Of a stretch of 64,000 nucleotides of DNA, positions 1 through 47,419 are shown piece after piece. Within the stretch, counting starts at the first letter, position 1, and each line of letters begins with the position of its first letter. This stretch comes from a virus. The translations under genes were made by a program, and so were the position numbers. The notes below the pieces were generated by a model. It searched no databases. It was not told the origin of the DNA and saw only the letters and a program-made list of their open reading frames with translations. Location: the IMG/VR virus record IMGVR_UViG_3300027784_000005, positions 1,121 to 65,120 of that record, one strand, 5' to 3'.

Positions 1-2
1 AA

Positions 3-353
3 AATCGTCTATGGCAAAAATTAGATGTCAGGGCAATGTTTTTAGTGTTCGGGGCTCATATGTGGAATTTTATAGGCTCTTGGGAAGCAGCTCTAATGAT
101 AGGCTTAGCAGTAATTTTAACTTGGGTTCGTGAATCAGATTTTTCAACCGAGGTAACTATCCCGTATATGTTTTTAATAACTGCAGCTTTGGCTTTATCT
201 TCGGGGGTAAGCTGGTTTTTCTTGATCGTTTTTATTATAGCCCTGGTTTGTAATATCCCTTTCTTATATTTAAACTTAAATAAGGGGGTAACAGACGTCC
301 TCCACGGCTTATGGCATATTTTAACAGCTTACGGTTTTTACTTATTAATGTAG
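3..353 (+). CDS. CREST-superfamily (alkaline-ceramidase-like) membrane hydrolase, 5'-truncated by the window edge
   Basis: Frame is open from base 3 (NRLWQKLDVRAMF...). QKLDVRAM and HGLWHILTAYG match the QxLDExxM and HxxWH motifs of alkaline ceramidase/CREST proteins; several hydrophobic helices. Confidence 0.6.
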   Translation, partial: NRLWQKLDVRAMFLVFGAHMWNFIGSWEAALMIGLAVILTWVRESDFSTEVTIPYMFLITAALALSSGVSWFFLIVFIIALVCNIPFLYLNLNKGVTDVLHGLWHILTAYGFYLLM

Positions 354-430
354 AATGTTTCAACGATATCGATTTTTTTCTAATTTATCTTAAATATTTA
401 TAACCAAATAAAAAAATAAGAGGTTAAATC

Positions 431-823
431 ATGGCAAAGAAAAAACAGAATAAACAAAAAGAAGAATCGGCTTTAAATATAGGCCTTGATGTATATACAA
501 GATTAATGTTAACCAGTATTTTTCCAGAACGTTGTTCTATCGAAGAGTATTTGACTTTTGATGATATTAAGAAGAAAATCACTATTGATGAGAAGGAACA
601 GAAAGAATTGGGTCTTAAGGTTTTAAATGACGGTAAAACCACCACTTGGAATCGTAAGGGAAATGAGGATAGAGAATTCACTTTTAGTAAAAAAGAAGTT
701 AGTACTATCTTAAATGTTTGTGAGTTAGCTTCTAGAAATAAAGACTTCCCTAATAACACAAGATTTTTTAAGTTTTATAAAGAGATAAAAGAGTTTAACG
801 AAGAAAACCCACAAGATAAATAA
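431..823 (+). CDS. hypothetical protein
   Basis: 130-aa ORF with AGAGG RBS, co-oriented with neighbours. Confidence 0.7.
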   Translation: MAKKKQNKQKEESALNIGLDVYTRLMLTSIFPERCSIEEYLTFDDIKKKITIDEKEQKELGLKVLNDGKTTTWNRKGNEDREFTFSKKEVSTILNVCELASRNKDFPNNTRFFKFYKEIKEFNEENPQDK

Positions 824-831
824 AGATTATT

Positions 832-1251
832 ATGCTCTATTCAGGATTAATCGTGTTTTTACAGAATGGGTCTGGTTTATCCAGTGGAGACTCCTTGTCT
901 TTATATATTATAGTTTCATTATTTTTAGTAATGGTTGTTGGTTTATTTTCTTGGATAATTAAAGAGTTATCTAATTTAAATACTAGACTTATTCAAAATC
1001 AAAATAAGATAATGGATAAACTGGAGGATTCAAATAAACAGGTTAGTGAACGTAAAAACGATATTGATGTACTTTTTGTGAAGATTGATCATTTAACTAA
1101 TCAACTTCCGGATTATCAATTAGTTTTTAGGAAGTTTACTGAATTGGATGAAAGAGTTAATAATGTAAGTAAAGAAAGTAAGAGAAATCAACTAGAGATA
1201 AATAGGATTAATCAGGGTTCTTTCCAGGACTCTGGAGATAGCTTTAAATAA
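832..1251 (+). CDS. membrane-anchored coiled-coil protein (holin-like architecture possible)
   Basis: N-terminal TM segment (LYIIVSLFLVMVVGLFSWII) followed by a heptad-rich region. Confidence 0.5.
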   Translation: MLYSGLIVFLQNGSGLSSGDSLSLYIIVSLFLVMVVGLFSWIIKELSNLNTRLIQNQNKIMDKLEDSNKQVSERKNDIDVLFVKIDHLTNQLPDYQLVFRKFTELDERVNNVSKESKRNQLEINRINQGSFQDSGDSFK

Positions 1252-1270
1252 CCTAATAAAAGGTGTTTAT

Positions 1271-2044
1271 ATGCCTAAGTATGGCCCCAAACCAGATATA
1301 GAAAAAGTATCTAATTATGAAGTCTATCAATTAGATAGAGATAAGAAAAGAATTAAACAGATTTGTGGGGTTCAAAGAAATAATGCTCCCGAGGGTTATG
1401 TTTGTTTAAAACCAGCTGGACACGGTACAAACCACCCCGGAACCGGTCCCTGTAAAGCCCATGACCGCCAGCTTATGAACCCTAATAATACCTCTCTCTG
1501 GCATAAGATGAATCGTTCTCAGAACTTACCGTCTACTTTAATGGAGTTTATGGAGAACGCAACAGAGATTGAGGAGACTCAATTGGCTATGGTTGATGAG
1601 GACATAAGGATGCTTTACGCTCTTCAATCCTATTTTTTAGAGAGTAAGTCAAAACCAGATAAGGATGGGAAAGAGAAAGAGTTGAGTTATGATGATATCG
1701 AATTATCTCTAAAGATTATAAATTCTATTATTTCTGCTAAAGAGAAAAGGGTTAAATTGAAGAAAGAGGTTGTATTAGATGCCTCAACAGTTAAAGTATT
1801 TGTAGATCAAGTTTTCAAGATAATTGTAGGTAATACAAATCAAGCACATTCTCGCAGGATATTAACGGAGATCCTTGATAATGTGATTATGCCATTCAAG
1901 CACTCCGGCCGTATTGCGGGACAAATTGATCTCACTAATGCCACTAAGAATATTGCAGAAGAGGTAGGGGTCAAGTCAAAAAAAGAAGATGACTCAGATT
2001 TTTGGGAAAATCTTGAGGATATAAAAGAGGATTACAATGGCTAG
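1271..2044 (+). CDS. terS: terminase small subunit
   Basis: CG...C...AGHGTNHPGTGPCKAH motif seen in phage TerS-like proteins; helical C-terminus; overlaps the TerL start. Confidence 0.65.
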   Translation: MPKYGPKPDIEKVSNYEVYQLDRDKKRIKQICGVQRNNAPEGYVCLKPAGHGTNHPGTGPCKAHDRQLMNPNNTSLWHKMNRSQNLPSTLMEFMENATEIEETQLAMVDEDIRMLYALQSYFLESKSKPDKDGKEKELSYDDIELSLKIINSIISAKEKRVKLKKEVVLDASTVKVFVDQVFKIIVGNTNQAHSRRILTEILDNVIMPFKHSGRIAGQIDLTNATKNIAEEVGVKSKKEDDSDFWENLEDIKEDYNG

Positions 2045-3308
2045 AACCCGTAAAAGAGATAAAGACTCAAATGTTGTAGATCAATGGGGTGCTATTAATC
2101 AACCCAATTCACATGAAGACCTAATTGCTGAACTGGGTGAGAAATGGATTGAAGATTATAAAAGCCAAGACACTGGTAGTCTTTATGATTGGAATGATTC
2201 AACTATCGAGGAGTTTAACAATATTCCGGTAGAGACTCTATTAATGGATCCATACTTTTTGAATCTTAAAGATATGGTATTTCCGGGAGTGTTAGATGAT
2301 ATATTAGAACTATGGGAGGAAAGAAGTAAGAGACAGGTTAATTTAACCTTATTTCTTCATGGAATAGGGGCGGGGAAGTCCATGGCTGCTAGCATCATAT
2401 CTTGGCTTTTAGTATATGAGTTATGTATGTATAAAAACCCGCAACAACATTTTGGATTAGCTGATAATTCAGTGATTGCGGTAATGCTTCTTTCAAGAAC
2501 CGAGACTCAAACCAGGAGGGTTATTTATAGTTATATGTGGGATAGGTTTCAATCTCAATTTAATAAAGATTACTTCCCCGTTAATCCAAAATTCTCTAGA
2601 GAGCTCAGGATTGATAGAAATAGGGTATGTGTTTATGCCGGTACAAGTTCAGCTTTAAGTGCTTTGGGATATAATGTTTATTGTTTAACAGGTGATACTG
2701 AGATTCAATTAGCTGATGGAAGTAATATTAGTTTACAAGAATTAGAAGGTTGTGGGAAATTAGATGTAAAAGGTTTTGATTTAAAATCTCAACAATTTGT
2801 AGGTACACAAGTTGAAGGGGTTGTTTGTAGTGGGGAGAAGGAAGTCTTTAAGTTAGAATTAGAAGATGGGTCTATTATAAAAGCTACTGAAGATCATCCT
2901 ATTTTAACTTATAAAAAAGTTAGAAGTAGAGAAAGACGTAGAGGGATTAAAGGGGGTTATATATTTAAATATAAGAAATTAAAAGATTTAACAGAGAAGG
3001 ACGAGATTGTTACTAAAAAGGATTTTATAAAATGTAGAATAACTGGGACTTTATTAACTCAAATTACTTATAAACACTTAAAAAATATAGGTTATACCTT
3101 TGATGGATATAAAAAGAAATTTCCAGATGCAGAGTTAGTTAGTCCTTTAATAAAAATGAGAATCGGTAAATTTTTAGAAGTTAAAGGTTATTTTAGAACT
3201 CCTAAGGCTAAGGAGAAATTTGAAACTGCTAATACTATAGCTGATGTTATGTTAGTAAGTAAAGAACAAATGAAAAACTTAGATTGTATAAGGGAGTATA
3301 TATCATGA
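2037..3308 (+). CDS. terL: terminase large subunit, ATPase N-part fused to N-intein (piece 1 of 3)
   Basis: Walker A GIGAGKS; at residue 216 the sequence switches to intein block A (CLTGDTEIQLADGS) and block B (IIKATEDHPIL). Confidence 0.9.
   Translation: MARTRKRDKDSNVVDQWGAINQPNSHEDLIAELGEKWIEDYKSQDTGSLYDWNDSTIEEFNNIPVETLLMDPYFLNLKDMVFPGVLDDILELWEERSKRQVNLTLFLHGIGAGKSMAASIISWLLVYELCMYKNPQQHFGLADNSVIAVMLLSRTETQTRRVIYSYMWDRFQSQFNKDYFPVNPKFSRELRIDRNRVCVYAGTSSALSALGYNVYCLTGDTEIQLADGSNISLQELEGCGKLDVKGFDLKSQQFVGTQVEGVVCSGEKEVFKLELEDGSIIKATEDHPILTYKKVRSRERRRGIKGGYIFKYKKLKDLTEKDEIVTKKDFIKCRITGTLLTQITYKHLKNIGYTFDGYKKKFPDAELVSPLIKMRIGKFLEVKGYFRTPKAKEKFETANTIADVMLVSKEQMKNLDCIREYIS
2682..3305 (+). other. 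N-terminal half of a split intein (IntN, 208 aa including a ~98-aa C-terminal extension)
   Basis: Cys1 at 2682 (TGT); block B TxxH (TEDH); ORF stops without the HN/S splice junction. Confidence 0.9.
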
Positions 3309-3409
3309 AGATAATATCGAAAAAAAGTTTAGGAAAACAGAAGGTTTATGATGCTATTAACTCCCAGACTAAAAATTTTATGCTTAATAATGGGGTTATT
3401 GTTCACAAT
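3305..3409 (+). other. C-terminal half of a split intein (IntC, 35 aa)
   Basis: Block F (KVYD) and block G (HN) followed by +1 Ser (TCG 3410-3412); length and basic charge resemble DnaE-type IntC. Confidence 0.9.
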
Positions 3410-3790
3410 TCGGGCGTCGTAGATGAAGCTAATTTTTTAGAAGTTATAGAGGATTCTAAAAAGAAAGGTTCTGGAGAAGTTTATGATGCGGCAGAGGAGA
3501 TGGAGAACGCTATTATGAATAGGATGACCTCAAGGTTTATGAGGGACGGAGTAATTCCTGGATTACTTTGTATGATATCTTCCCCACTATATCCCGATTC
3601 TTATATGGAAAGAAAAATTAAGCAAATAAAAGAAAAAGGGGAGGGTGTAATGAAGGCTTTTTATAGATCACGCTCTACTTGGGAGGCTAAGGGGGCCAGA
3701 TTCTTCCCCGATTTTTATGAGAGAGATGAATATATTGAGGTAGACTTAGAATCATTACAAATCATAAAAGAAAATATTAGGAGGGGATAA
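3305..3790 (+). CDS. terL: C-intein fused to the remainder of the terminase ATPase (piece 2 of 3)
   Basis: ATG at 3305 overlaps the upstream TGA (ATGA), AGGGAG RBS at 3291-3296; MKIISKKSLGKQKVYD...VIVHN/S then Walker B VVDEANF. The ORF-track start at 3284 (TTG) is probably too early. Confidence 0.9.
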   Translation: MKIISKKSLGKQKVYDAINSQTKNFMLNNGVIVHNSGVVDEANFLEVIEDSKKKGSGEVYDAAEEMENAIMNRMTSRFMRDGVIPGLLCMISSPLYPDSYMERKIKQIKEKGEGVMKAFYRSRSTWEAKGARFFPDFYERDEYIEVDLESLQIIKENIRRG

Positions 3791-3793
3791 GAT

Positions 3794-4288
3794 ATGAAGA
3801 AAAAGAGTTTTTGTGTATTAGATATTGAAACAATTGATTTTAAACCTCGAAGAGATCATATTTGGTCTATATCTATACTAAAGATTTCGGATATGGAAGT
3901 ATTTGAGGTTTTTGATTCTTTAGTTAGACCCCCCGCTGGCTTAGAGCAAAATTTTTATAGAGCTTCTGGTAAAGGACCCGTAGATTTTGAATATACTTAT
4001 AATATTGATAAGGTAGCTTCCAAAGCATATAACTTTATTAATAATGATATTGTCTATGCTTATAATGCTCCTTTTGATCACCGGTTCTTAGTCCTGGCCG
4101 ATACTAGATTTAAAAACTTACATTATAGAGATTATTTGAAGGTACTTAAAGATCGATATTCTAATTTAAGTAGTTATAAACTTAAAGAGGTAGCCAAAAT
4201 TTTTAATATTGATTATAAGAAAAATGGTTTTGTTAGTGTTGATGATTGTTATGCTTTATTTGAATTAATAAAAAAGGTGGGGTTATGA
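3794..4288 (+). CDS. DEDD-family 3'-5' exonuclease (DnaQ/epsilon-like)
   Basis: ExoI VLDIET, ExoII YNAPFD, ExoIII SVDD; the catalytic His is not evident. Confidence 0.8.
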   Translation: MKKKSFCVLDIETIDFKPRRDHIWSISILKISDMEVFEVFDSLVRPPAGLEQNFYRASGKGPVDFEYTYNIDKVASKAYNFINNDIVYAYNAPFDHRFLVLADTRFKNLHYRDYLKVLKDRYSNLSSYKLKEVAKIFNIDYKKNGFVSVDDCYALFELIKKVGL

Positions 4289-4833
4289 AATTCACATCAT
4301 TAATAAATTATCTCTTTTCTAAAAATTATATATCTATTGATAAGGAGTCAGAAGATAAAAAACAGACCCCTAGTGAGTTTGAATTAAGTAGACAAAGAGG
4401 TTTGCCTTTTAATATGTCAGAATTCATAAGGAGGCCAGATTTACCAGTTCCTGTTGAAGTTCAAGATAAAATCTTAGAATTTCATTTATATCCTTTGTCT
4501 TTTTTGAGGTGGGATATTGATTGCCCCATAATTATATCCCTTAGGTCAGCTTTTAGGCCCGTTGAACATGAGATAGAGAAGGGGAGGTCAGGTAATTCAG
4601 AGCATTGTTTTAAAGGATTAGGGGCCTCAGATATAACCTCTCCTCAGTTTAAAAAAATGGTCAAGAGGCTTCTAGATTTAGAGATATATGATCGTTTAAT
4701 ACTATATCCAGATAATAATTTTGTTCACGGGGATTATTCTGACGTAGGGGATAAATATGGTTTGAATTATGAAAGACAAGGTATTTCTTGGGTTAGTAAG
4801 GGGAGGTTTATTGAGGCTATAGATAGATTATGA
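4285..4833 (+). CDS. peptidase M15A-family zinc peptidase, probable endolysin
   Basis: SAFR...SEH...GLGASD...FVHGD matches the M15A pattern SxYR/SxH/AxD/HxD. Confidence 0.75.
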   Translation: MKFTSLINYLFSKNYISIDKESEDKKQTPSEFELSRQRGLPFNMSEFIRRPDLPVPVEVQDKILEFHLYPLSFLRWDIDCPIIISLRSAFRPVEHEIEKGRSGNSEHCFKGLGASDITSPQFKKMVKRLLDLEIYDRLILYPDNNFVHGDYSDVGDKYGLNYERQGISWVSKGRFIEAIDRL

Positions 4834-4834
4834 T

Positions 4835-5848
4835 ATGAGTGAACGTAAAACTATAAAAATCCCTTTATCTCTAAAGGCCAGGTTTTTATCTGATCCTGAG
4901 AATTTTATTCGTGATATTGCCGCGATTAGTACGGAAAGTATATCTCCTTTCTTCCGAAGAAAAGATAAATTAACTGAGTTATTAGAGAAATCCAAAGATC
5001 GATATAACCCTTTTGATGAAGATTCCCTTGTATTTGATGAAGATTTTGTTTGTAGAGATAATTTTACTCGTTATATGCACATTGACTTGGGTTTAAATAA
5101 AGATGCTGTTGGTATCAGTATGTGTCATATTCCCTTTTTCATGGATAGAGAAGATTGGATAACTGGGCCCGAGGGGTTGGAGAGGAATATCGATAGAGTT
5201 CCTTTTGTGAATTTTGATTTCATAGGGCGTATAAAAGCAGATAAGGGAGAGGAGATTATATTATCCGAAGTTAGACAGGTTATCTATGAGCTAACGAACT
5301 TGGGTTTTTATATTGATTTAATTACTTATGATGGATTTCAATCTGTAGAATCAATTCAAACTTTAAGAGCACAAGGGTATAGAGCTGCAAGGTTATCTGT
5401 AGATAGAACCTCTACAAAAGTATTATCTGTTAAATTGAAAGAAGATAAAACAGGTAAAAGTAATTATGGAATAAGAAGAGAGTCCACTGATGGTAATATC
5501 ATTGCTGCTTGGCAATCATTAAAAGAAGTGGTTTATGAGGATCGTATAGGGATGCCTTATTATGAGTGGGTTATTGAAGAAGCTAGGGGTCTTCAAGAAG
5601 ATCGTGTTAAACAAAAAATTGATCATAGGCCCAAAGGAACCTCTGATGTTATTCAATCTGTGTCAGGGTCTACTTTTAATGCAGTGGTTAATGAACAGGA
5701 GGGTCCCTATCATGATGTACAAGTTTATGCCCAAAAGACGGGGGATAATTTCTATAATCAATTAAATCCTTCTAAACCGGGTAATGATTTAATTAACGAG
5801 GATTGGGAGGATGATTTTGATCCGCAGGACAGAGAATATTTATATTGA
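4835..5848 (+). CDS. terL: terminase large subunit, RNase H-like nuclease domain (piece 3 of 3)
   Basis: FLSDPENFIRD linker, HIDLGLNKDAVGISMCH, ITYDGFQS, KIDH..KGTSD; lies directly before the portal gene. Confidence 0.85.
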   Translation: MSERKTIKIPLSLKARFLSDPENFIRDIAAISTESISPFFRRKDKLTELLEKSKDRYNPFDEDSLVFDEDFVCRDNFTRYMHIDLGLNKDAVGISMCHIPFFMDREDWITGPEGLERNIDRVPFVNFDFIGRIKADKGEEIILSEVRQVIYELTNLGFYIDLITYDGFQSVESIQTLRAQGYRAARLSVDRTSTKVLSVKLKEDKTGKSNYGIRRESTDGNIIAAWQSLKEVVYEDRIGMPYYEWVIEEARGLQEDRVKQKIDHRPKGTSDVIQSVSGSTFNAVVNEQEGPYHDVQVYAQKTGDNFYNQLNPSKPGNDLINEDWEDDFDPQDREYLY

Positions 5849-5868
5849 CATAAATCTATAAGGATATT

Positions 5869-7713
5869 ATGAATAAAATTTTCAAAAATATAAGAAGAAG
5901 GCTGGGATATTTCTCCTCTAAAGAGTTAGAGAAGACAGTAGATATTGCTGTCGATAAAGTTATCAACGAACACCGTATGTGGAAACAAAACGTTGATAAA
6001 GAATATGATTATTCTAATAGAAGAGAATCAGTGGCTGAGTCCCACGATGATAGGTTCTCCCTTTATGAGAGTCGCTATGAAACTAAGAAAAAAGGAAAAG
6101 ATGAAGAGGGTAAAGATTTTAGTATTATAGAATCTTTTACTGGCGGGTGGCACCCACAATTTGATACAGCCTATGATCAGTCGGTTGAGCAACTCCATAG
6201 GATGCAACAAGTTACCCTATCTAAATATTTCTCGGATCCACACTGTAGATCTATCATTGAGAATTGGCTTAACTATACTATCGGCGGAGGTATTCAGTTT
6301 AATATTGATAATGAGAAAGTTAAGAAAGTTGTTGATGATTTCCGTCGAAATAATGGTATGGAGAGTAGGGAGAAAGATATTGTTAAGATGTCTTTTATTG
6401 AAGGGGAGGTTTTCTTAGTTTATTATGTTTCAGCACGAGACGGAGACACAAAGATAAGGAGGATTCGTCCACAAGAGATAGCCGATATTGAAACTCACCC
6501 AGAAGATGTAGAAACTATATTCTCATATCATTGGTATTATACCGATTCTCGCCCCGGCACAACTCAATCATATTCAGTTGATTTAAGATTGGCTGATATA
6601 GAGTATGATAATTATAAACAAGAGTCTCAATCTAAAGGAGTTTTAAAAAGAAAAAATTCCCAGTATGAGCCCAGGTTAAAACGTAATACTGAGATTCAGT
6701 TTATTAAAATGGGTTTGGATAATGAATTAAGAGGTCGGGTTCCTTTACAACCGGTATTACGGTTTTTGAAATATTATGAAGATTGGTTAGTTGATAGAAT
6801 CATCCTTAATCATGAAAGATCAAAGGTTGTATGGATTAAATCAGTTAAAGGCCGAGGTCAAGGAGAGTGGGGTAAGAATTCAGGTGTTAGGGCTAGTAAG
6901 TCTCCGAAAGGTGGAGTCATGTTAGTTGAATCAGATAATGAAACCTATAGGATTGAGTCCCCCGAGCTAAATGCTAACGAGGCAAAAGAAGATGGGATGG
7001 CTATCCTCCATACTATTGGGGCTGGTTCTAATATGCCATTACATGTTCTTAATCAACGAGCAGACATGACCTCTTATGCTAGTATAAGAAAGTCTGATAC
7101 ACCATTCAGTCAGTTTATACGAGGTTCTCAACAATTCTTTAAACCAGAGTTTGAAAGAATGTATAGAGAGGTTATTGAAAATAAAGTTAAGGCTGGGAAA
7201 TTACCTAAGACTATTAGCGTATATGATTATTCTCAGGAAGATCTTAAAGTAGCCTTTGATATTATTAATGAGGGGTATTTAGAGAATAGACACATTGATA
7301 CTATTAAAGAAGAAGTTGATAAAGTATTAGACAGTAAACCAAAGAAGAGAAAGATAAAAACAGTTGATGTTCCACTTGGTATTGAATTCCCCGAAGTCCT
7401 CAGGGAAGACCTAAAAGCCCAGGCAGATGTCCTCAAGATCCATAAGGATATAGGTATTGCAAGTTTAGCCACTCTTGCAGCTAAGGCTGGTTATAATTGG
7501 AAAGAGGAATTACATAACAAAATGGTTGAAAAGGATTTCTTTAAACAGAATGATCCAGTAGATCCTAAGAAAGGTGATGAAGAGGATAATGGGGGAGATA
7601 AAAATGATGGCGAACCCAGTGGATCACAAGGAGATAAGGGGGATGATAAATCTCCCGGTCAAGGCGAGGACGGTGGAGAAGATAAAGGTTCTAAAAACGA
7701 TAAAAACGAATAG
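5869..7713 (+). CDS. portal protein
   Basis: 614 aa, follows TerL; portal-like segments (EGEVF, RGRVPLQPVL, YASIR); acidic Gly-rich C-tail. Confidence 0.8.
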   Translation: MNKIFKNIRRRLGYFSSKELEKTVDIAVDKVINEHRMWKQNVDKEYDYSNRRESVAESHDDRFSLYESRYETKKKGKDEEGKDFSIIESFTGGWHPQFDTAYDQSVEQLHRMQQVTLSKYFSDPHCRSIIENWLNYTIGGGIQFNIDNEKVKKVVDDFRRNNGMESREKDIVKMSFIEGEVFLVYYVSARDGDTKIRRIRPQEIADIETHPEDVETIFSYHWYYTDSRPGTTQSYSVDLRLADIEYDNYKQESQSKGVLKRKNSQYEPRLKRNTEIQFIKMGLDNELRGRVPLQPVLRFLKYYEDWLVDRIILNHERSKVVWIKSVKGRGQGEWGKNSGVRASKSPKGGVMLVESDNETYRIESPELNANEAKEDGMAILHTIGAGSNMPLHVLNQRADMTSYASIRKSDTPFSQFIRGSQQFFKPEFERMYREVIENKVKAGKLPKTISVYDYSQEDLKVAFDIINEGYLENRHIDTIKEEVDKVLDSKPKKRKIKTVDVPLGIEFPEVLREDLKAQADVLKIHKDIGIASLATLAAKAGYNWKEELHNKMVEKDFFKQNDPVDPKKGDEEDNGGDKNDGEPSGSQGDKGDDKSPGQGEDGGEDKGSKNDKNE

Positions 7714-7721
7714 GACTCTAT

Positions 7722-7928
7722 ATGTCAGATAAAGAAAGAAAACTCGGTGAAATTGAAGGTATTATTGAAGACTCTGAAGAGTCTGAAGAACAACAAATAG
7801 AGGCCCTCTATCTAGTGATAAAATTAGAGGGAGAGGAGAATCCCGTAACAATTAATGTAAAGGACGAAGATTTAAGACAGTGGATAGAAAACCTTATTAA
7901 TCAAGAACCTCAAAATAATATATCATGA
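7722..7928 (+). CDS. hypothetical acidic protein
   Basis: 68-aa ORF, ATGA-coupled to the next gene. Confidence 0.6.
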   Translation: MSDKERKLGEIEGIIEDSEESEEQQIEALYLVIKLEGEENPVTINVKDEDLRQWIENLINQEPQNNIS

Positions 7929-8197
7929 GCTTCTCAAATCCTGATGATGGAATTAATGATGGTCACATTGAAGAATTAGATAAATCTAAGCAACGTACCG
8001 GTAAAAGTAATGGACGTTGGAAAGGAGGCCGTTCAAAGTCTTTTCGTAGGAGGGCTACTAATGCTAAGAAAGGAGAGGTTGTACATCATAAGAATCGTAA
8101 AAAAAGTGATAATCGCCCAAGTAATTTCCAGAAGATGAGTCCTGCTCAACACAACAAAGCTCACCCAGAGAAGGGGAGGAAATCTAATAAAAAATAA
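7925..8197 (+). CDS. small HNH endonuclease-like protein
   Basis: NGRWKGG...VVHHKNRKKSDNRPSN...QHNKAH beta-beta-alpha-metal motif. Confidence 0.75.
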   Translation: MSFSNPDDGINDGHIEELDKSKQRTGKSNGRWKGGRSKSFRRRATNAKKGEVVHHKNRKKSDNRPSNFQKMSPAQHNKAHPEKGRKSNKK

Positions 8198-8199
8198 TT

Positions 8200-8466
8200 A
8201 TGAATAATAACTCTCTTGAATATACTGACAAGCAAAAGGCTGAAATCAGAGAAAAAGTTATTAAAGCTCTAGACGAGTCTTTCGAGATTAATAAATTCGG
8301 TTCAGGTTGTCCTATGTGGATGAATATCCTCTTTGTATTAAATAATTTCAATCAGGGTAAGTATTATGGAACCATAGAGATTAAAGTACTCGGAACCTCT
8401 GTAAACGATGCTAGGGAAAAAGAAAAAACTTATAAGATGAGAGAGATCTTTGAGGATGTTAAATAA
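8200..8466 (+). CDS. hypothetical protein
   Basis: 88-aa ORF in the head operon. Confidence 0.6.
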   Translation: MNNNSLEYTDKQKAEIREKVIKALDESFEINKFGSGCPMWMNILFVLNNFNQGKYYGTIEIKVLGTSVNDAREKEKTYKMREIFEDVK

Positions 8467-8560
8467 AATTTTAAGTGATCATTAAAGATTATGGGTTTTA
8501 ATCCTTGATAGACACTTAGTTGTTAATTAATTTCATAATAACACAAAGAAGAGGTAAAAA

Positions 8561-9889
8561 ATGTCGAAAAAACAAAAAACAAAAGAGGAGGAAGTCTTGG
8601 AAGGTTTTAGAAACCTCATTGAGTCTTTCCGGGAGAAGGAAAATCCTCCCAAACCCTCTAACGAAGATACCTTAAAAGAGATGGAAAATTTTTCGGTGTC
8701 TCAAGGGCCAGGGTCTATTAAGGTTTTAGAGGCAGATGATGAGAAAGGGGTTAAAAGATTAGAAGTTAAACTTATCGAACATGGCTGGTCTAAAAATGGG
8801 TACTTCTATTCAAAAGAGGTTGCTGAATCTGTTGCCCACCTTGTTAATAACCAGAGTCGTCGTAAGATGTATATGGATCACGACTCTATGTTCTTTTCTA
8901 GGCCCAGTAGAGACTTAAAAGAATTTGCAGCTATTATTGTAGAGGCTTATGCCCGGGACGGCGCTAGCTATGCAATTGTTGAATCCACCGGTAATCCTAC
9001 TACAGATTGGATCTTTGATCTCGCTAAACGTCACCCAAAAGAGATCGGGGCTTCTATTGATGCAAGAGCAAAAGTAGAAGAAGTTGATGAGCCTGATGAT
9101 GATGAAGAAAAGAACAGAAACAGGTGGTTAGTTAAGGAGTTAGTGTTTGTTAACTCTGTTGATTTTGTATCTTATGCTTCCGCAGGAGGGGAGGTTGTAA
9201 CTTCTCTTGCTCAGGAAGCTCTTCAGATAATGGAGTCTTATATTAAAAAAGAAGAAAAAGACTTAGTTGATACGGTAGAAAGCTTTAGAGAAGAAATTAA
9301 GGCTCTATCCAAAGATACTAAAGAAGAACAAAAAGAAGAAGAAGAAAAACCGAAACAAAACCAAAAAACAGAGGAATCAATTATGGCTGAAAACACAAAA
9401 GAGCAAATCACTCTTGAATCTCTTCGGGCTAGTAACCCAGAGGTGATTAACCAAATCCGTAAAGATATTAAGGAGGAAGTTAAACAAGAGTTTGATGCTG
9501 AAAAAGAAGTTAAAGATTTGACCGCTGCTAAAAAGTCTGCTGAGGAAAAAGTAAGCACACTTGAATCAGAAAAAGACGGACTTCAACAGGAACTGGATTC
9601 CTATAAAGTAAAGGAAGCTGCAATGGAACGGAGACAGAGGGTTCTTGATTTGATTAAGGAACACGACCTCCCTGAGCATGCAGCTACTAAGGTCTTCAAA
9701 GAAGATTTGGAAAAGCTTGATAAAGACGAGGATGTTATTGAACGCATCAAGGATCGTAAGGAGCTTTTGAATAGTATTGAAGAGGGAGAAGTTCAAGGGA
9801 ATGGTCCCCGTAAAGATACTCATAACACCAAAGAAGGTCAGAAAGATAAACTTACCGACGATGATTTGGTAGCAAATCTTAAAGCTTAA
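8561..9889 (+). CDS. prohead protease-scaffold fusion
   Basis: YMDH...IGASI...SVDFVSYASAGG protease-like N-half and coiled-coil C-half; GAGGT RBS. Confidence 0.75.
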   Translation: MSKKQKTKEEEVLEGFRNLIESFREKENPPKPSNEDTLKEMENFSVSQGPGSIKVLEADDEKGVKRLEVKLIEHGWSKNGYFYSKEVAESVAHLVNNQSRRKMYMDHDSMFFSRPSRDLKEFAAIIVEAYARDGASYAIVESTGNPTTDWIFDLAKRHPKEIGASIDARAKVEEVDEPDDDEEKNRNRWLVKELVFVNSVDFVSYASAGGEVVTSLAQEALQIMESYIKKEEKDLVDTVESFREEIKALSKDTKEEQKEEEEKPKQNQKTEESIMAENTKEQITLESLRASNPEVINQIRKDIKEEVKQEFDAEKEVKDLTAAKKSAEEKVSTLESEKDGLQQELDSYKVKEAAMERRQRVLDLIKEHDLPEHAATKVFKEDLEKLDKDEDVIERIKDRKELLNSIEEGEVQGNGPRKDTHNTKEGQKDKLTDDDLVANLKA

Positions 9890-43702: not shown

Positions 43703-46700
43703 TTAAATAGTTTCTTTTGTTTGTTTTTCTCTTAGAATTTTGAGTCTATAATTAATTGTTTTTGGATGAACGTTATATTCAATATTATCCCAACCCCATC
43801 TTTTTAAGAATACTTCCGGCTCTGCAATCAATGGGAGATTAAAGGGCTTAGGAGTTAATTCCATTAATTCTTTAACCTCTCCTACTAAATGTATTTCATC
43901 TTTATGAAATTCAAAAATCAAAGCATCATGTACATTCAATAAGAAATGTGATTTAGCTTTTTTCTTTCTCAACATTTTATGTGCTTTGATTGCCCCTAAT
44001 TGAGTGATATCTGAGGCTGTACTCTGAATAATAGCATTAAGGCCTTCCCTTAAAGCCTCGGCTTGTTTATCCTCATCAGGAGATAAAATTTGAGGTAACC
44101 TCCTTATTCTACCAAAACAATTTTCTACGTAGCCATATTGTTGTATAAATCTATGAATCTTTTTGATAAATTGATCTACTCCTTTATATAATTTGAAAAA
44201 CTCTCTACGAAAATGTTGCATTTCTTCAATAGTGGGTATGTCGTCTTCATCCCCCGATTTTTCCTTAATACCAGCTAAAGCGCGTTTTGCTGAATTATGT
44301 ACTGAGAAGTGATTTACTGTATAATAGGGTTCTTCATTTACTGTTAAATCATATACTTTTTTAACTCCTATCTCTTTAGATTCAACTAGCCTAGTCATAT
44401 AATGATTATCATTAATGATTGATAAATTATACTCCTTAGTTTTTCCATTTTTTGCTGTATGTTTCTTTTTATATAAAAACCCTATATCTAGTAAGAATTT
44501 ATCAATGTGATAAGTTATGATTTGTAATCTGTTTTTCTTTATTTTACTAACTATACCCCAATTAGTTAACATCTCTTGAAGGTCCTTTAATAATCGGGGG
44601 GACATTGATTTATAAGAAATCCCCCCTCTAGTACTAATAGAGCCATCCCCCTCAAAAATAGCTTGTAAAAAGGTTTTTTGAAATTCTTTTGGACTATTTT
44701 TTATCCAATCGGGGATATATTTATTATGTGACCTATCATTACCTTTTTCCATTAATTCCATAAACCATTCACACATGATTATGGAGGTTATATATAATGT
44801 TCTACTACGAGGTATTGGGTTACCCTGTAGATCCTTTTTAATTACCTTTTTACCCTCAGTATTTTTTCTGCGTATGTATTTATCTTTATCTGATAATGTA
44901 ATATGGTCTTCTGGGAATATGTTTTTACTTACTTCAACTATTTTATCCCAAAATTTATCACTTTTATTTGTGTAACCTTGACATATATTTAAACCATGGT
45001 AGAAATTTCTACGGAGTGGTTGTGGTAATCTAACCGACCCCTCAGATAACCAAGCTCCCATAAATGTAGCTAAATCTTGAGTCATGTATTTTGGAGGTTG
45101 CCAATCAACCTTTTTATATTTCATATTCCCCAAATCAACCTTAGGTAATTTATTATCTTCCCCAAAAACTTGGGTGTTATATACTTTTATAACGGGCTCA
45201 CCGATTTTTATATCCCCAATAGATTTAAACCCTAATACAGATTGAATTTCATGATTAGGCGTACAAGTAAGAGTAGACCCATCAGAGAATGTATATTCTT
45301 TAACTAATCTTTCCCCGTTTTTATGCAATTGTTCAACTTCGAATTCCCCTTTATAGTTTATAACCTTATCCCCTTTTTTAATGTCTTGGATATATTTATA
45401 TCCTTTATTGGTTAATACTTTAGAAAATTCAGGAAAACACCCCCCATAGATAAAGCCGAAGTTTACTAACTTAGCTCTCTTTCTTTCCCATTTTGTAACT
45501 TCATGAGGTTTCTTTTTAAAGATAAAACAAGCTGTAGTAAGGTGGACATCCCCTCCTTCTTGATATACTTTTAATAAAACTGGGTCCTGAGAGTAATAAC
45601 TCATCACTCTAAGTTCAACCTGTGAAAAGTCTATCTCTACTGGGTAATAATTTGGATCAGCTGTAAACATCCCTTTTATTTTCTTTTCCCTGGGGATATT
45701 TTGAAGATTGGGATTTTTTGAAGAGGTTCTACCTGTTACAGTACCATGTAACAGGAAATCATTGTGGATACGATCATTATAATCTACTTTATCAATAAAA
45801 GGACGGAGATAGGTTGTTAAAGCTTTATTAAAACCCCTGTATTCAAGTATATGATTTACAATCTTAATATTCTCTGAATTTTTGGGTATCTCTTTTAATA
45901 CCCCTTCAGAGGTAGATGGTTGACTGGTTTCAGTATAACCCATTACAGGTAGTTTTAATTCTTTATATAAAACCTGTTGAAGTTGAGGGGTAGAGTTGAG
46001 ATTGAATTCTTTACCTGCAACTTTAAATACCTCTTTTAAATGCTTAGCTTCTTCAATTTCATATTCTTTGATTGTATTTTTAACGTAAGGTACATCAATC
46101 TTTGTTCCCCTCATTTCAGCATCAGCATATACTCTTGTTAAAGGCATATAGAAATGAAATAATAATCTCTTTAGATTGGGAGTTAATTCTTTATAAAAAT
46201 CTCTAGCTAATCTTAATGTTAGATCACAGTCTATACAACAGTATCTACCTAATACGGGTAGAGGGATATCTCCGAAGGTTGATTCTTCTTCTTTTTTCTT
46301 AGTTAAATATTTATCTAATTCTTCATCGTAACCCCTGTATTCTGGGTATTTTTGATTAATTACAACTTTTAATCCATGCTTCTTATTCTCATCTAGGATA
46401 TAATGGGCTAACATAGTATCCATCCAAAGATTGGGAATTCTAATATTAAAATGATACTCACACATTTTTGTATCAAATTTGATATTATGGGCTATCTTCT
46501 TGGGTTTTTTAGCTAATAACACCATCTTAATTAATCTAAAAACCTCTTCATCTTCATCTCCCCAATAACTATAATAATCATCATCAAAACTTGAAACATT
46601 TGGTTCTTCATATAAAGAATCATCTTTTTTAACCATGAGGGGGATATAAACCCCCGTTTTTGGTTTCAAAGAAAAACCAATACCCAATAAGTGATGTTTC

Positions 46701-47419
46701 CAAAAAACATTACCCGTAGTTTCAACGTCAAAAGAATAATGTTTAGCTTCTATAGCTTTTTCAGCAAAAGATCTAACATCAGCTAAGTTGTCTAATACTG
46801 TATAATTACCTTTTATCTTTTTTGTTTTATAGCTCCCTGATAAAATCCCTTTCAGAGTCTTAAAGTCATAATCAAATTCTTCTTTATACTGAGGTGTTCT
46901 TATAATATAAGCTGGATGATACATGGGGAGTAATTTTACTCCATACGTTTCATCATTGATTACCCTACCGTGGTTTTTTGTAATACCGCCTTTTAATTTA
47001 AATCTTTCACAAGAGCCCGTGCCTAAAAGGACAATAGCCTTTGGTTTAGTGTGCTGTATTATAGCATCTAAGTTTTCAGCACAATGTTTTTGTTCTTTCT
47101 TTTTGGGCTTTCTATCTTTGACTTGACCCGATATGGGGTCAATATTCTCTGGCCTACAAGCTACGGTATTACATAAGGCAAAATTTGTAATCCCAAACTC
47201 ATGGATTGTTTTTTGTAATAATTTCCCGGCTCTTCCTTGAAATACCTTCCCTATTCTCTTTTCTTGACCACCAGGTGCTTCCCCAACAAATAATACCTCA
47301 CAATTGTCTAGGTCTCCCCAATAGTTATGGGGATTATAGCTTTGTTCACAATACAAGGGGCAATCATCGCAATTTGATAAAGGTAACGATATCTCACCTT
47401 TTTTTATTTTCTTCGACAT
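43703..47419 (-). CDS. polA: family A DNA polymerase with an N-terminal uracil-DNA glycosylase domain, 3'-5' exonuclease and an intein
   Basis: UDG family 4 motifs (CxxC, VGEAPG, GRAG, YHPA); exonuclease FDVET, HNIKFD, YCCIDCD; motifs A DFSQVELR, B RKRAKLVNFGFIYG, C VHDA. Confidence 0.95.
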   Translation of the reverse strand: MSKKIKKGEISLPLSNCDDCPLYCEQSYNPHNYWGDLDNCEVLFVGEAPGGQEKRIGKVFQGRAGKLLQKTIHEFGITNFALCNTVACRPENIDPISGQVKDRKPKKKEQKHCAENLDAIIQHTKPKAIVLLGTGSCERFKLKGGITKNHGRVINDETYGVKLLPMYHPAYIIRTPQYKEEFDYDFKTLKGILSGSYKTKKIKGNYTVLDNLADVRSFAEKAIEAKHYSFDVETTGNVFWKHHLLGIGFSLKPKTGVYIPLMVKKDDSLYEEPNVSSFDDDYYSYWGDEDEEVFRLIKMVLLAKKPKKIAHNIKFDTKMCEYHFNIRIPNLWMDTMLAHYILDENKKHGLKVVINQKYPEYRGYDEELDKYLTKKKEEESTFGDIPLPVLGRYCCIDCDLTLRLARDFYKELTPNLKRLLFHFYMPLTRVYADAEMRGTKIDVPYVKNTIKEYEIEEAKHLKEVFKVAGKEFNLNSTPQLQQVLYKELKLPVMGYTETSQPSTSEGVLKEIPKNSENIKIVNHILEYRGFNKALTTYLRPFIDKVDYNDRIHNDFLLHGTVTGRTSSKNPNLQNIPREKKIKGMFTADPNYYPVEIDFSQVELRVMSYYSQDPVLLKVYQEGGDVHLTTACFIFKKKPHEVTKWERKRAKLVNFGFIYGGCFPEFSKVLTNKGYKYIQDIKKGDKVINYKGEFEVEQLHKNGERLVKEYTFSDGSTLTCTPNHEIQSVLGFKSIGDIKIGEPVIKVYNTQVFGEDNKLPKVDLGNMKYKKVDWQPPKYMTQDLATFMGAWLSEGSVRLPQPLRRNFYHGLNICQGYTNKSDKFWDKIVEVSKNIFPEDHITLSDKDKYIRRKNTEGKKVIKKDLQGNPIPRSRTLYITSIIMCEWFMELMEKGNDRSHNKYIPDWIKNSPKEFQKTFLQAIFEGDGSISTRGGISYKSMSPRLLKDLQEMLTNWGIVSKIKKNRLQIITYHIDKFLLDIGFLYKKKHTAKNGKTKEYNLSIINDNHYMTRLVESKEIGVKKVYDLTVNEEPYYTVNHFSVHNSAKRALAGIKEKSGDEDDIPTIEEMQHFRREFFKLYKGVDQFIKKIHRFIQQYGYVENCFGRIRRLPQILSPDEDKQAEALREGLNAIIQSTASDITQLGAIKAHKMLRKKKAKSHFLLNVHDALIFEFHKDEIHLVGEVKELMELTPKPFNLPLIAEPEVFLKRWGWDNIEYNVHPKTINYRLKILREKQTKETI
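44294..45439 (-). mobile_element. contiguous intein with a LAGLIDADG homing endonuclease in polA (382 aa)
   Basis: YGG/CFPEFSKVLT ... FSVHN/SAKR; block B TPNH; LAGLIDADG blocks FMGAWLSEGS and LQAIFEGDGS. Confidence 0.95.

Follow-up and report, generated by a model that had tools for sequence, protein, structure and literature searches.

A canonically split intein with a decayed homing-endonuclease tail in the ATPase gene of a phage large terminase, predicted to splice in trans

Introduction

Split inteins in phage genes, including one in a terminase, were described in 2009 by Dassa, London, Stoddard, Schueler-Furman and Pietrokovski (PMC2677866). Complementary charges of the two halves are a described pattern of split inteins, the fractured genes include gp41-1, NrdJ-1 and IMPDH-1, and the model proposed for their origin predicts that the endonuclease is later lost (PMC2677866). 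In terminases, the natural GOS-TerL and AceL-TerL and the engineered Cat-TerL have been characterised as atypically split inteins (PMC2677866, PMC11766414). Here we analysed a locus in the ATPase gene of the large terminase (TerL) of a phage from a salt-lake metagenome (IMG/VR record IMGVR_UViG_3300027784_000005). The stretch under study, called the window below, is 64 kb of this 67.6-kb viral record, which CheckV rates as complete, with 34% G+C; all positions refer to the window. Two overlapping open reading frames (ORFs) of the window very probably encode a naturally split class-1 intein with a canonical break, which interrupts the Walker B beta-strand of the ATPase, and trans-splicing of the two parts is predicted.

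The locus can be compared with four groups of described systems. The locus resembles the fractured genes of 2009 in three respects: the break in the phage gene coincides with the place in an intein where endonucleases insert, the charges of the halves are complementary, and the end of the endonuclease coding sequence overlaps the start codon of the C-terminal intein half (IntC). However, the endonuclease of the window is fused in frame to the N-terminal half (IntN) and largely deleted, and no ORF lies between the halves; a free-standing homing endonuclease is absent from the window but present in one of its relatives (L024). The Npu and Ssp DnaE split inteins of cyanobacteria share the canonical break, a basic IntC of 35-36 aa and the pattern K.LGKQ.VYD...NF...NG.I..N. 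They differ in that the host protein of the window is TerL, its halves are adjacent and overlapping whereas those of DnaE are at distant loci, its +1 residue is Ser instead of Cys, and the likeness in IntN is confined to block B. GOS-TerL and AceL-TerL are also naturally split inteins of phage large terminases from aquatic or saline metagenomes, but they combine an IntN of 25-37 aa with an IntC of 104-122 aa, whereas the window has an IntN core of 115 aa and an IntC of 35 aa; judged from its sequence, the window pair lies outside the atypically split TerL class with its short IntN and long IntC. Finally, in Bacillus phage vB_BceM-HSE3, TerL is split near the same site with an ORF in between: gp054 holds the N-terminal part of TerL and an IntN (...DVF↓CLTG..., where the arrow marks the splice point here and below), and the IntC of gp056 ends in HN↓CAMLDEIEF, immediately before Walker B. 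Listeria phage LIS04 is apparently alike: upstream of TerL, its annotation lists an "intein splicing region protein", an endonuclease and a Hint-domain protein. In both phages, unlike in the window, the C-terminal part keeps the nuclease domain in the same polypeptide. We found no paper on canonical-break TerL split inteins at Walker B or on the HSE3 case, in a literature search of incomplete coverage.

Results

Anatomy of the intein halves

The locus consists of ORF1 (2037-3308, plus strand, 423 aa) and ORF2, which opens at ATG 3305, both read from the sequence (Table 1). The initial annotation had described an N-terminal part of TerL ending in an IntN, with Cys1 at 2682 and a TGA stop reaching 3308, followed by an ORF with an ATGA overlap, the motif AGGGAG 8 nt upstream of its start and a basic 35-aa IntC ending in HN↓S. 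All of these coordinates are correct, and the IntC is exactly 35 aa long.

All class-1 splicing residues (Cys1, TxxH, the block F Asp, His-Asn and Ser+1) are kept. The class-1 nucleophile is Cys216 of ORF1 (TGT), directly after the conserved extein end GYNVY. Block B reads T284-E-D-H287 (2886-2897), where the relatives keep TEDH, TQDH or TEYH, and blocks F and G (...VYD...NF...NGVIVHN↓S, 3329-3412) provide the penultimate His, the terminal Asn and Ser+1. The halves are on separate ORFs, and the break falls between blocks N4 and F, at the canonical position used by inserted endonuclease domains. The net charge is -8 for IntN residues 1-78 and +5 for IntC.

The halves were also compared with known inteins, and they match complementary ends of one intein profile, each with a score below the cut-off. 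Residues 225-295 of ORF1 align with positions 3-78, and residues 3-35 of ORF2 with positions 123-155, of the 155 positions of Pfam PF14890 (Intein_splicing), at 24.1 and 15.3 bits (E 3.4e-5 for IntN), the cut-off of 35.8 bits applying to a whole intein. Among PDB sequences, IntN matched PolC, DnaB and DnaE inteins, and the best match of IntC was the Npu DnaE IntC (4lx3_B; E 1.7e-4; 17/34 identical, residues 2-35 against 3-36), in keeping with the likeness to cyanobacterial DnaE inteins proposed earlier. The IntC halves of P0079 and P0080 share 24-25 of the 35 residues with that of the window.

Table 1. Features of the window, and intein insertion sites found within 15 residues of Walker B in the TerL clade
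Feature	Position	Strand	Description
N-extein	2037-2681	+	TerL ATPase residues 1-215; ends ...SALGYNVY
IntN Hint core	2682-3026	+	115 aa; Cys1 at 2682-2684; ends ...EIVTKKDF at the canonical break point
Decayed homing-endonuclease remnant	3027-3305	+	93 aa, fused in frame to IntN; from alignment to the intact homing endonucleases of P0006, L006 and L009
Shine-Dalgarno-like AGGGAG	3291-3296	+	8 nt before the IntC ATG
ATGA overlap	3305-3308	+	ORF2 start overlaps ORF1 stop (TGA 3306-3308); predicted translational coupling
IntC	3305-3409	+	35 aa, net charge +5; block F ...VYD...NF, block G NGVIVHN
C-extein	3410-3790	+	Ser+1, Walker B VVDE (3416-3427) and remaining ATPase domain; 126 aa plus stop codon
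RNase T-like exonuclease gene	3794-4288		Between ATPase and nuclease genes; Pfam
M15-like gene	4285-4833		Between ATPase and nuclease genes; Pfam
TerL nuclease domain as separate gene	4835-5848	+	Matches TerL of Bacillus phage HSE3 at residues 168-423 (BLASTP, E 5e-19)
Site A			SS.L↓SALGYN; L005, L024, P0096
Site B1			GYN.Y↓S/C; window, L006-L008, L027, cis alleles
Site B2			Y-G-G↓C/S; L009, L028, L020-L023
Site C			IDEA↓C/S; P0045 (cis), P0104 (split)

The interrupted protein is a terminase ATPase

Walker A (GIGAGKS, 2361-2381) lies in the N-extein, which matches annotated phage terminases in tblastn with E values of 4e-16 to 2e-12; the C-extein matches phage TerL with E 8e-17. Intein-less homologues from metagenomes are stand-alone proteins of 311-343 aa. 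The N-extein is ~72% identical to two of them, P0003 and P0004, and the C-extein is collinear with P0003, the closest. When the exteins were joined in silico (215 + 126 = 341 aa, junction NVY↓SGVVDE), 256 of the 341 residues were identical to those of P0003 (338 aa), and the alignment was gap-free at the junction, where P0003 reads ...GYNAY↓SGVVDEANF...; the +1 Ser is native to the intein-less homologues. The earlier proposal that ligation restores Walker B in a 341-aa ATPase is well supported by this comparison.

Using Pfam and PHROGs, the raw ORFs gave weak terminase signals, and a PDB sequence search with the intein-less ATPase returned nothing useful. Therefore, P0003 was modelled with AlphaFold (50 homologues as input; pLDDT 86.7) and searched by fold, and the top PDB matches were the TerL ATPase domains of T4 gp17, D6E, P74-26, HK97 and Sf6. 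With Walker A, Walker B and the TerL fold modelled for this 75%-identical homologue, the host protein is assigned to the large-terminase ATPases. In the model, the splice junction (Y212↓S213) falls within a beta-strand (210-217) that has the Walker B Asp-Glu at its end; because of this position, the model implies that the unspliced halves cannot be an active ATPase.

The IntN carries the remnant of a homing endonuclease

In the initial annotation, the whole intein part of ORF1 was taken as IntN. This holds for the Hint domain, but the Hint domain accounts for only ~115 of the 208 intein residues, and the other 93 (ORF1 residues 331-423), which had been missed, are a homing-endonuclease remnant. 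An endonuclease fused in frame to IntN is found in the relatives P0006/L005, L006, L009, L027 and L028, where it consists of a Ros/MucR-like C2H2 finger (C..C...H....H), NUMOD3 repeats and a PD-(D/E)xK nuclease with T7 endonuclease I as its nearest Pfam family. In L006, Pfam gave Phage_endo_I with E 1e-6 (28.9 bits against a cut-off of 29.1) and ROS_MUCR with E 3e-4; the tail of the window gave ROS_MUCR with E 0.16.

In the window, the finger (3027-3092, CRIT...HLKNIG) is without two of its four ligands. A deletion of ~190 aa follows ...LIKMRIGK and has removed the NUMOD3 repeats as well as the ...SSWE...YTPDF... nuclease half. The surviving nuclease piece (3171-3305) is the C-terminal FLEVKGYFR...MKNLDCIREYIS of a T7 endo I-like PD-(D/E)xK nuclease. 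Since the endonuclease is dead, the intein is no longer able to home by itself. Block B of IntN is followed by a strongly basic inserted loop of 14 residues (2916-2957), with a net charge of +9 over intein residues 79-104. The loop is common to the endonuclease-bearing relatives and absent in the cis mini-inteins; it may serve to contact DNA and may have been acquired together with the endonuclease or have evolved alongside it.

Relatives with split and contiguous inteins

The relatives found in an exhaustive HMMER search with ORF2 numbered 581. When 50%-identity clusters were formed and their best 150 representatives considered, IntC was at residue 1 in nine and internal in ~15. Split loci were found in L005, L006-L008, L009, L020-L023, L024, L027 and L028/L029. 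The endonuclease ORF ends 32 nt past the IntC ATG in L005, L006-L008 (three samples), L009 and L028/L029, and the overlap is 20 nt in L027; at each of these loci, IntC is read in the +1 frame and opens with M(K/R)I..SKK.LGK.... Other arrangements are an IntN-NUMOD3-HNH fusion followed by a methylase gene and then IntC with the C-terminal part of TerL (L020-L023), and, in L024, a free-standing gene that lies between the halves and encodes the endonuclease fused to IntN in L005, L006 and L009. In L028 (1235-3032 of contig GCA_033813855.1, from a metagenome-assembled genome), a frameshift within the nuclease domain disrupts the IntN-fused endonuclease, while the IntC ORF remains intact together with its 32-nt overlap. 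The locus thus represents a second and independent stage in which the endonuclease has decayed and the split persists.

Cis mini-inteins at the exact site of the window are found in P0002, P0005 and P0027, with the insertion point GYN.Y↓(C) ... HN↓(S/C).V(I/V)DE. Their intein regions are 30-41% identical to that of the window, and the identity over ORF1 is 49-55%; unlike the window, they are contiguous and have no endonuclease, stop codon or internal start. They read ...EIVTKDDF-IRIKSIRSLG..., which places the break where ...DF meets (I/M)(R/K)I...; therefore the window is broken at the canonical endonuclease-insertion point. Over the clade, inteins are found at four positions no more than 15 residues from Walker B (Table 1).

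At site A, L005 (2223-2232) and L024 (2882-2891), from different sequencing runs, have a common 10-nt insert, TGA(A/C)TAAGAT, directly after ...HN↓SALG, where it interrupts the C-extein codons for SALG-YNL. Translation would thereby meet TGA and TAA, and the rest of the ATPase is moved to the +1 frame; in P0096, SALGYNLY is uninterrupted. The insert may be a lesion that both loci share, an artefact of assembly or a recoding or bypass site, and a pattern scan for further copies gave only two chance matches. Reading HN SALG plus stop in these two loci as a 34-nt insert was rejected in favour of a site-A intein followed by the C-extein SALGYNL. with the 10-nt insert.

The junction between the two ORFs

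The ATGA overlap is one of three such junctions between ORFs of at least 80 aa on the plus strand of the window. AAGG/GGAG is found at the place equivalent to AGGGAG in L005, L006 and L009, and the AGGGAG region is unstructured as RNA. In frame 0, homology between ...QMKNLDCIREYI and the endonuclease tails of the relatives (...QMKDLNCILEYI...) reaches codon 3300-3302, and in frame 2 homology begins at ATG 3305; therefore no interval is left for a hidden indel. Compared with the loci of the split relatives, a single additional base precedes the ATG in the window, so that ORF1 stops at ATGA and IntC is in the -1 frame. Removing this base restores the overlapping, still split, arrangement of the relatives.

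Over 2600-3900, the probable source run as assembled independently by Logan gives an identical sequence (18.9-kb contig, word depth 11.7). Pieces of both halves are present in soda-lake metagenomes of 2019 and 2022: 229 nt of IntN with a single difference, and 303 nt of IntC and C-extein that are identical. The exact junction 24-mer gave no independent contig in IMG/VR or in the JGI metagenome contigs. An intron as the cause of the TerL breaks was rejected, as a permissive Rfam scan of 1-9000 returned nothing relevant.

Neighbouring genes and other inteins

The terminase gene order of the window continues with the nuclease domain (Table 1) and the portal. The ATPase and nuclease genes are also separate in the relatives, adjacent in L006 and with the same exonuclease gene between them in L005, L027 and L028; the separation is therefore a trait of the clade and no local accident. 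Further inteins of this ATPase family occupy other sites: L006 has a LAGLIDADG-type intein (L006:2-1060) ending in ...INHN↓TEIQ, and L013-L016 have ATPase ORFs of 735-780 aa without an intein at Walker B. Elsewhere in the window (43703-47419, minus strand), a family-A DNA polymerase of 1238 aa with a uracil-DNA-glycosylase-like N-terminal region contains a contiguous intein with a LAGLIDADG-type endonuclease (...FGFIYGG↓CFPEF...SVHN↓SAKR...). Since this intein is contiguous and that of TerL is split, the phage has one cis and one split intein.

Discussion

The split-intein interpretation is supported by an intein-less homologue with the predicted junction, cis alleles at the same site and diverged split relatives. 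As the split is conserved in relatives in a different frame relation, an assembly error or a programmed frameshift is unlikely. If the true gene were a contiguous cis intein with an endonuclease remnant that had lost one base in sequencing or assembly, a single added base in 3263-3304 would fuse the ORFs, because ORF2 is in the -1 frame relative to ORF1; the A5 run at 3273-3277, the modest coverage and the lack of an independent contig over the junction would suit such an error. However, the homologies in frames 0 and 2 meet at 3300-3305 with no room for it, the relatives are split at the same place in the +1 frame with overlaps of 20-32 nt, two ORFs remain even when the extra base is removed, and the Logan sequence is identical, so that we regard this explanation as highly improbable. 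The same low probability is given to a programmed -1 ribosomal frameshift at G AAA AAC (3272-3278), which would yield mainly a contiguous cis-splicing intein with the trans-frame peptide ...EQMKKLRLYKGVYIMK.... The initial annotation had named this case and the single-base error as possible refutations. As it pointed out for the frameshift, the -1 frame is indeed open from 3263 (after TAA 3260-3262) and the near-slippery heptamer is present, but the two refutations were for the most part not borne out. The first base of the heptamer breaks the X XXY YYZ pattern, no stimulatory structure is predicted downstream (minimum free energy -3.9 kcal/mol, z +0.4), the relatives lack the heptamer and would need a +1 shift, and ORF2 has its own conserved ATG and Shine-Dalgarno-like motif.

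It is also improbable, if a little less so, that no splicing occurs, with TerL a decaying, non-functional gene of a defective phage or its fragments kept in contact by non-covalent binding of the intein halves. Decay of the attached endonuclease is evident, splicing activity is only predicted, and L005 and L024 have their frame-breaking 10-nt insert in the C-extein. Nevertheless, every catalytic residue is kept, both exteins are intact and ~75% identical to the intein-less homologue, the genome is complete, the lineage recurs in samples of 2012, 2019 and 2022, and a Walker B strand broken by a 243-aa Hint complex is unlikely to be active. Trans-splicing by a split intein remains our preferred explanation. 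Its basis in observation is the anatomy of the locus, the homologies and the conserved split, whereas the association of the halves, the splicing chemistry, the stoichiometry and the evolutionary order are predictions. Several points weigh against it: splicing activity stands as a prediction; the Pfam match of each half alone is under the gathering score; the 93-aa dead tail could slow association or promote aggregation; use of Shine-Dalgarno motifs in this genome is moderate (21/73 crude ORFs against a background of 12%); and the sole contig spanning the junction is probably from the sample of the window's own assembly.

In the proposed mechanism, which is modelled on the established behaviour of canonical split inteins for association and chemistry, ORF1 and ORF2 would be co-transcribed, and ATGA-coupled translation would give roughly equal amounts of two precursors, the N-extein-IntN with its dead endonuclease tail and the IntC-C-extein. 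The acidic IntN core and the basic IntC may associate with electrostatic assistance to form the Hint fold. A Cys1 thioester, transesterification to Ser+1, cyclisation of IntC Asn35 and an O-to-N shift would then follow, by which the Walker B strand would be ligated to give the 341-aa ATPase with the junction ...GYNVY-SGVVDE..., and IntN with its tail and IntC would be released. The ATPase would work with the separately encoded nuclease subunit.

Regarding the history of the locus, a homing endonuclease of the ZnF-NUMOD3-endo I-like type may have invaded a mini-intein and become fused to IntN, bringing its own stop codon and the IntC start codon. A later deletion of ~190 aa would have decayed the endonuclease in the phage of the window while the split stayed. 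This predicted order agrees with the gene-breaking model of Dassa et al. 2009, also in that the endonuclease overlaps the downstream start. A more far-reaching reading, which we consider improbable, joins two propositions. In one, the remnant would be a domesticated appendage, for example a tail that may bind DNA or a partner, or a brake on the association of IntN and IntC; if so, assembly of the packaging ATPase would be conditional on infection stage or salt. In the other, canonical split inteins at the four positions near Walker B (no more than 15 residues away) would be abundant in the TerL clade and as yet undescribed, and a single endonuclease module directed against the intein gene itself would have turned all of them from mini-inteins into split inteins.

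The locus had initially been presented as a new split-intein pair; the pair is supported by comparison, but its novelty was overstated, since split inteins in TerL, like fractured genes in phages, are already established (PMC2677866, PMC11766414). Current understanding is not overturned by this further example of an arrangement known in phage terminases since 2009. With it, the known natural split inteins of terminases gain a pair with the canonical break (Cys1/Ser+1, 35-aa IntC) that comes from a saline or alkaline lake. Natural split-intein pairs are routinely mined as orthogonal, possibly salt-tolerant, protein-ligation tools, and it is plausible that the window pair is a new orthogonal pair.

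The locus and its relatives form a series that includes the cis mini-intein, the free-standing endonuclease between the halves, the IntN-fused endonuclease, its frameshifted form and, in the window, a largely deleted endonuclease with the split retained. This series illustrates the route proposed in 2009 from fractured genes to endonuclease-free split inteins, and the window clearly captures an endonuclease in decay after the gene was fractured. The arrangement implies two steps that are essential to the phage: the ATPase would have to be spliced in trans, as predicted here, and to assemble with the separately encoded nuclease.

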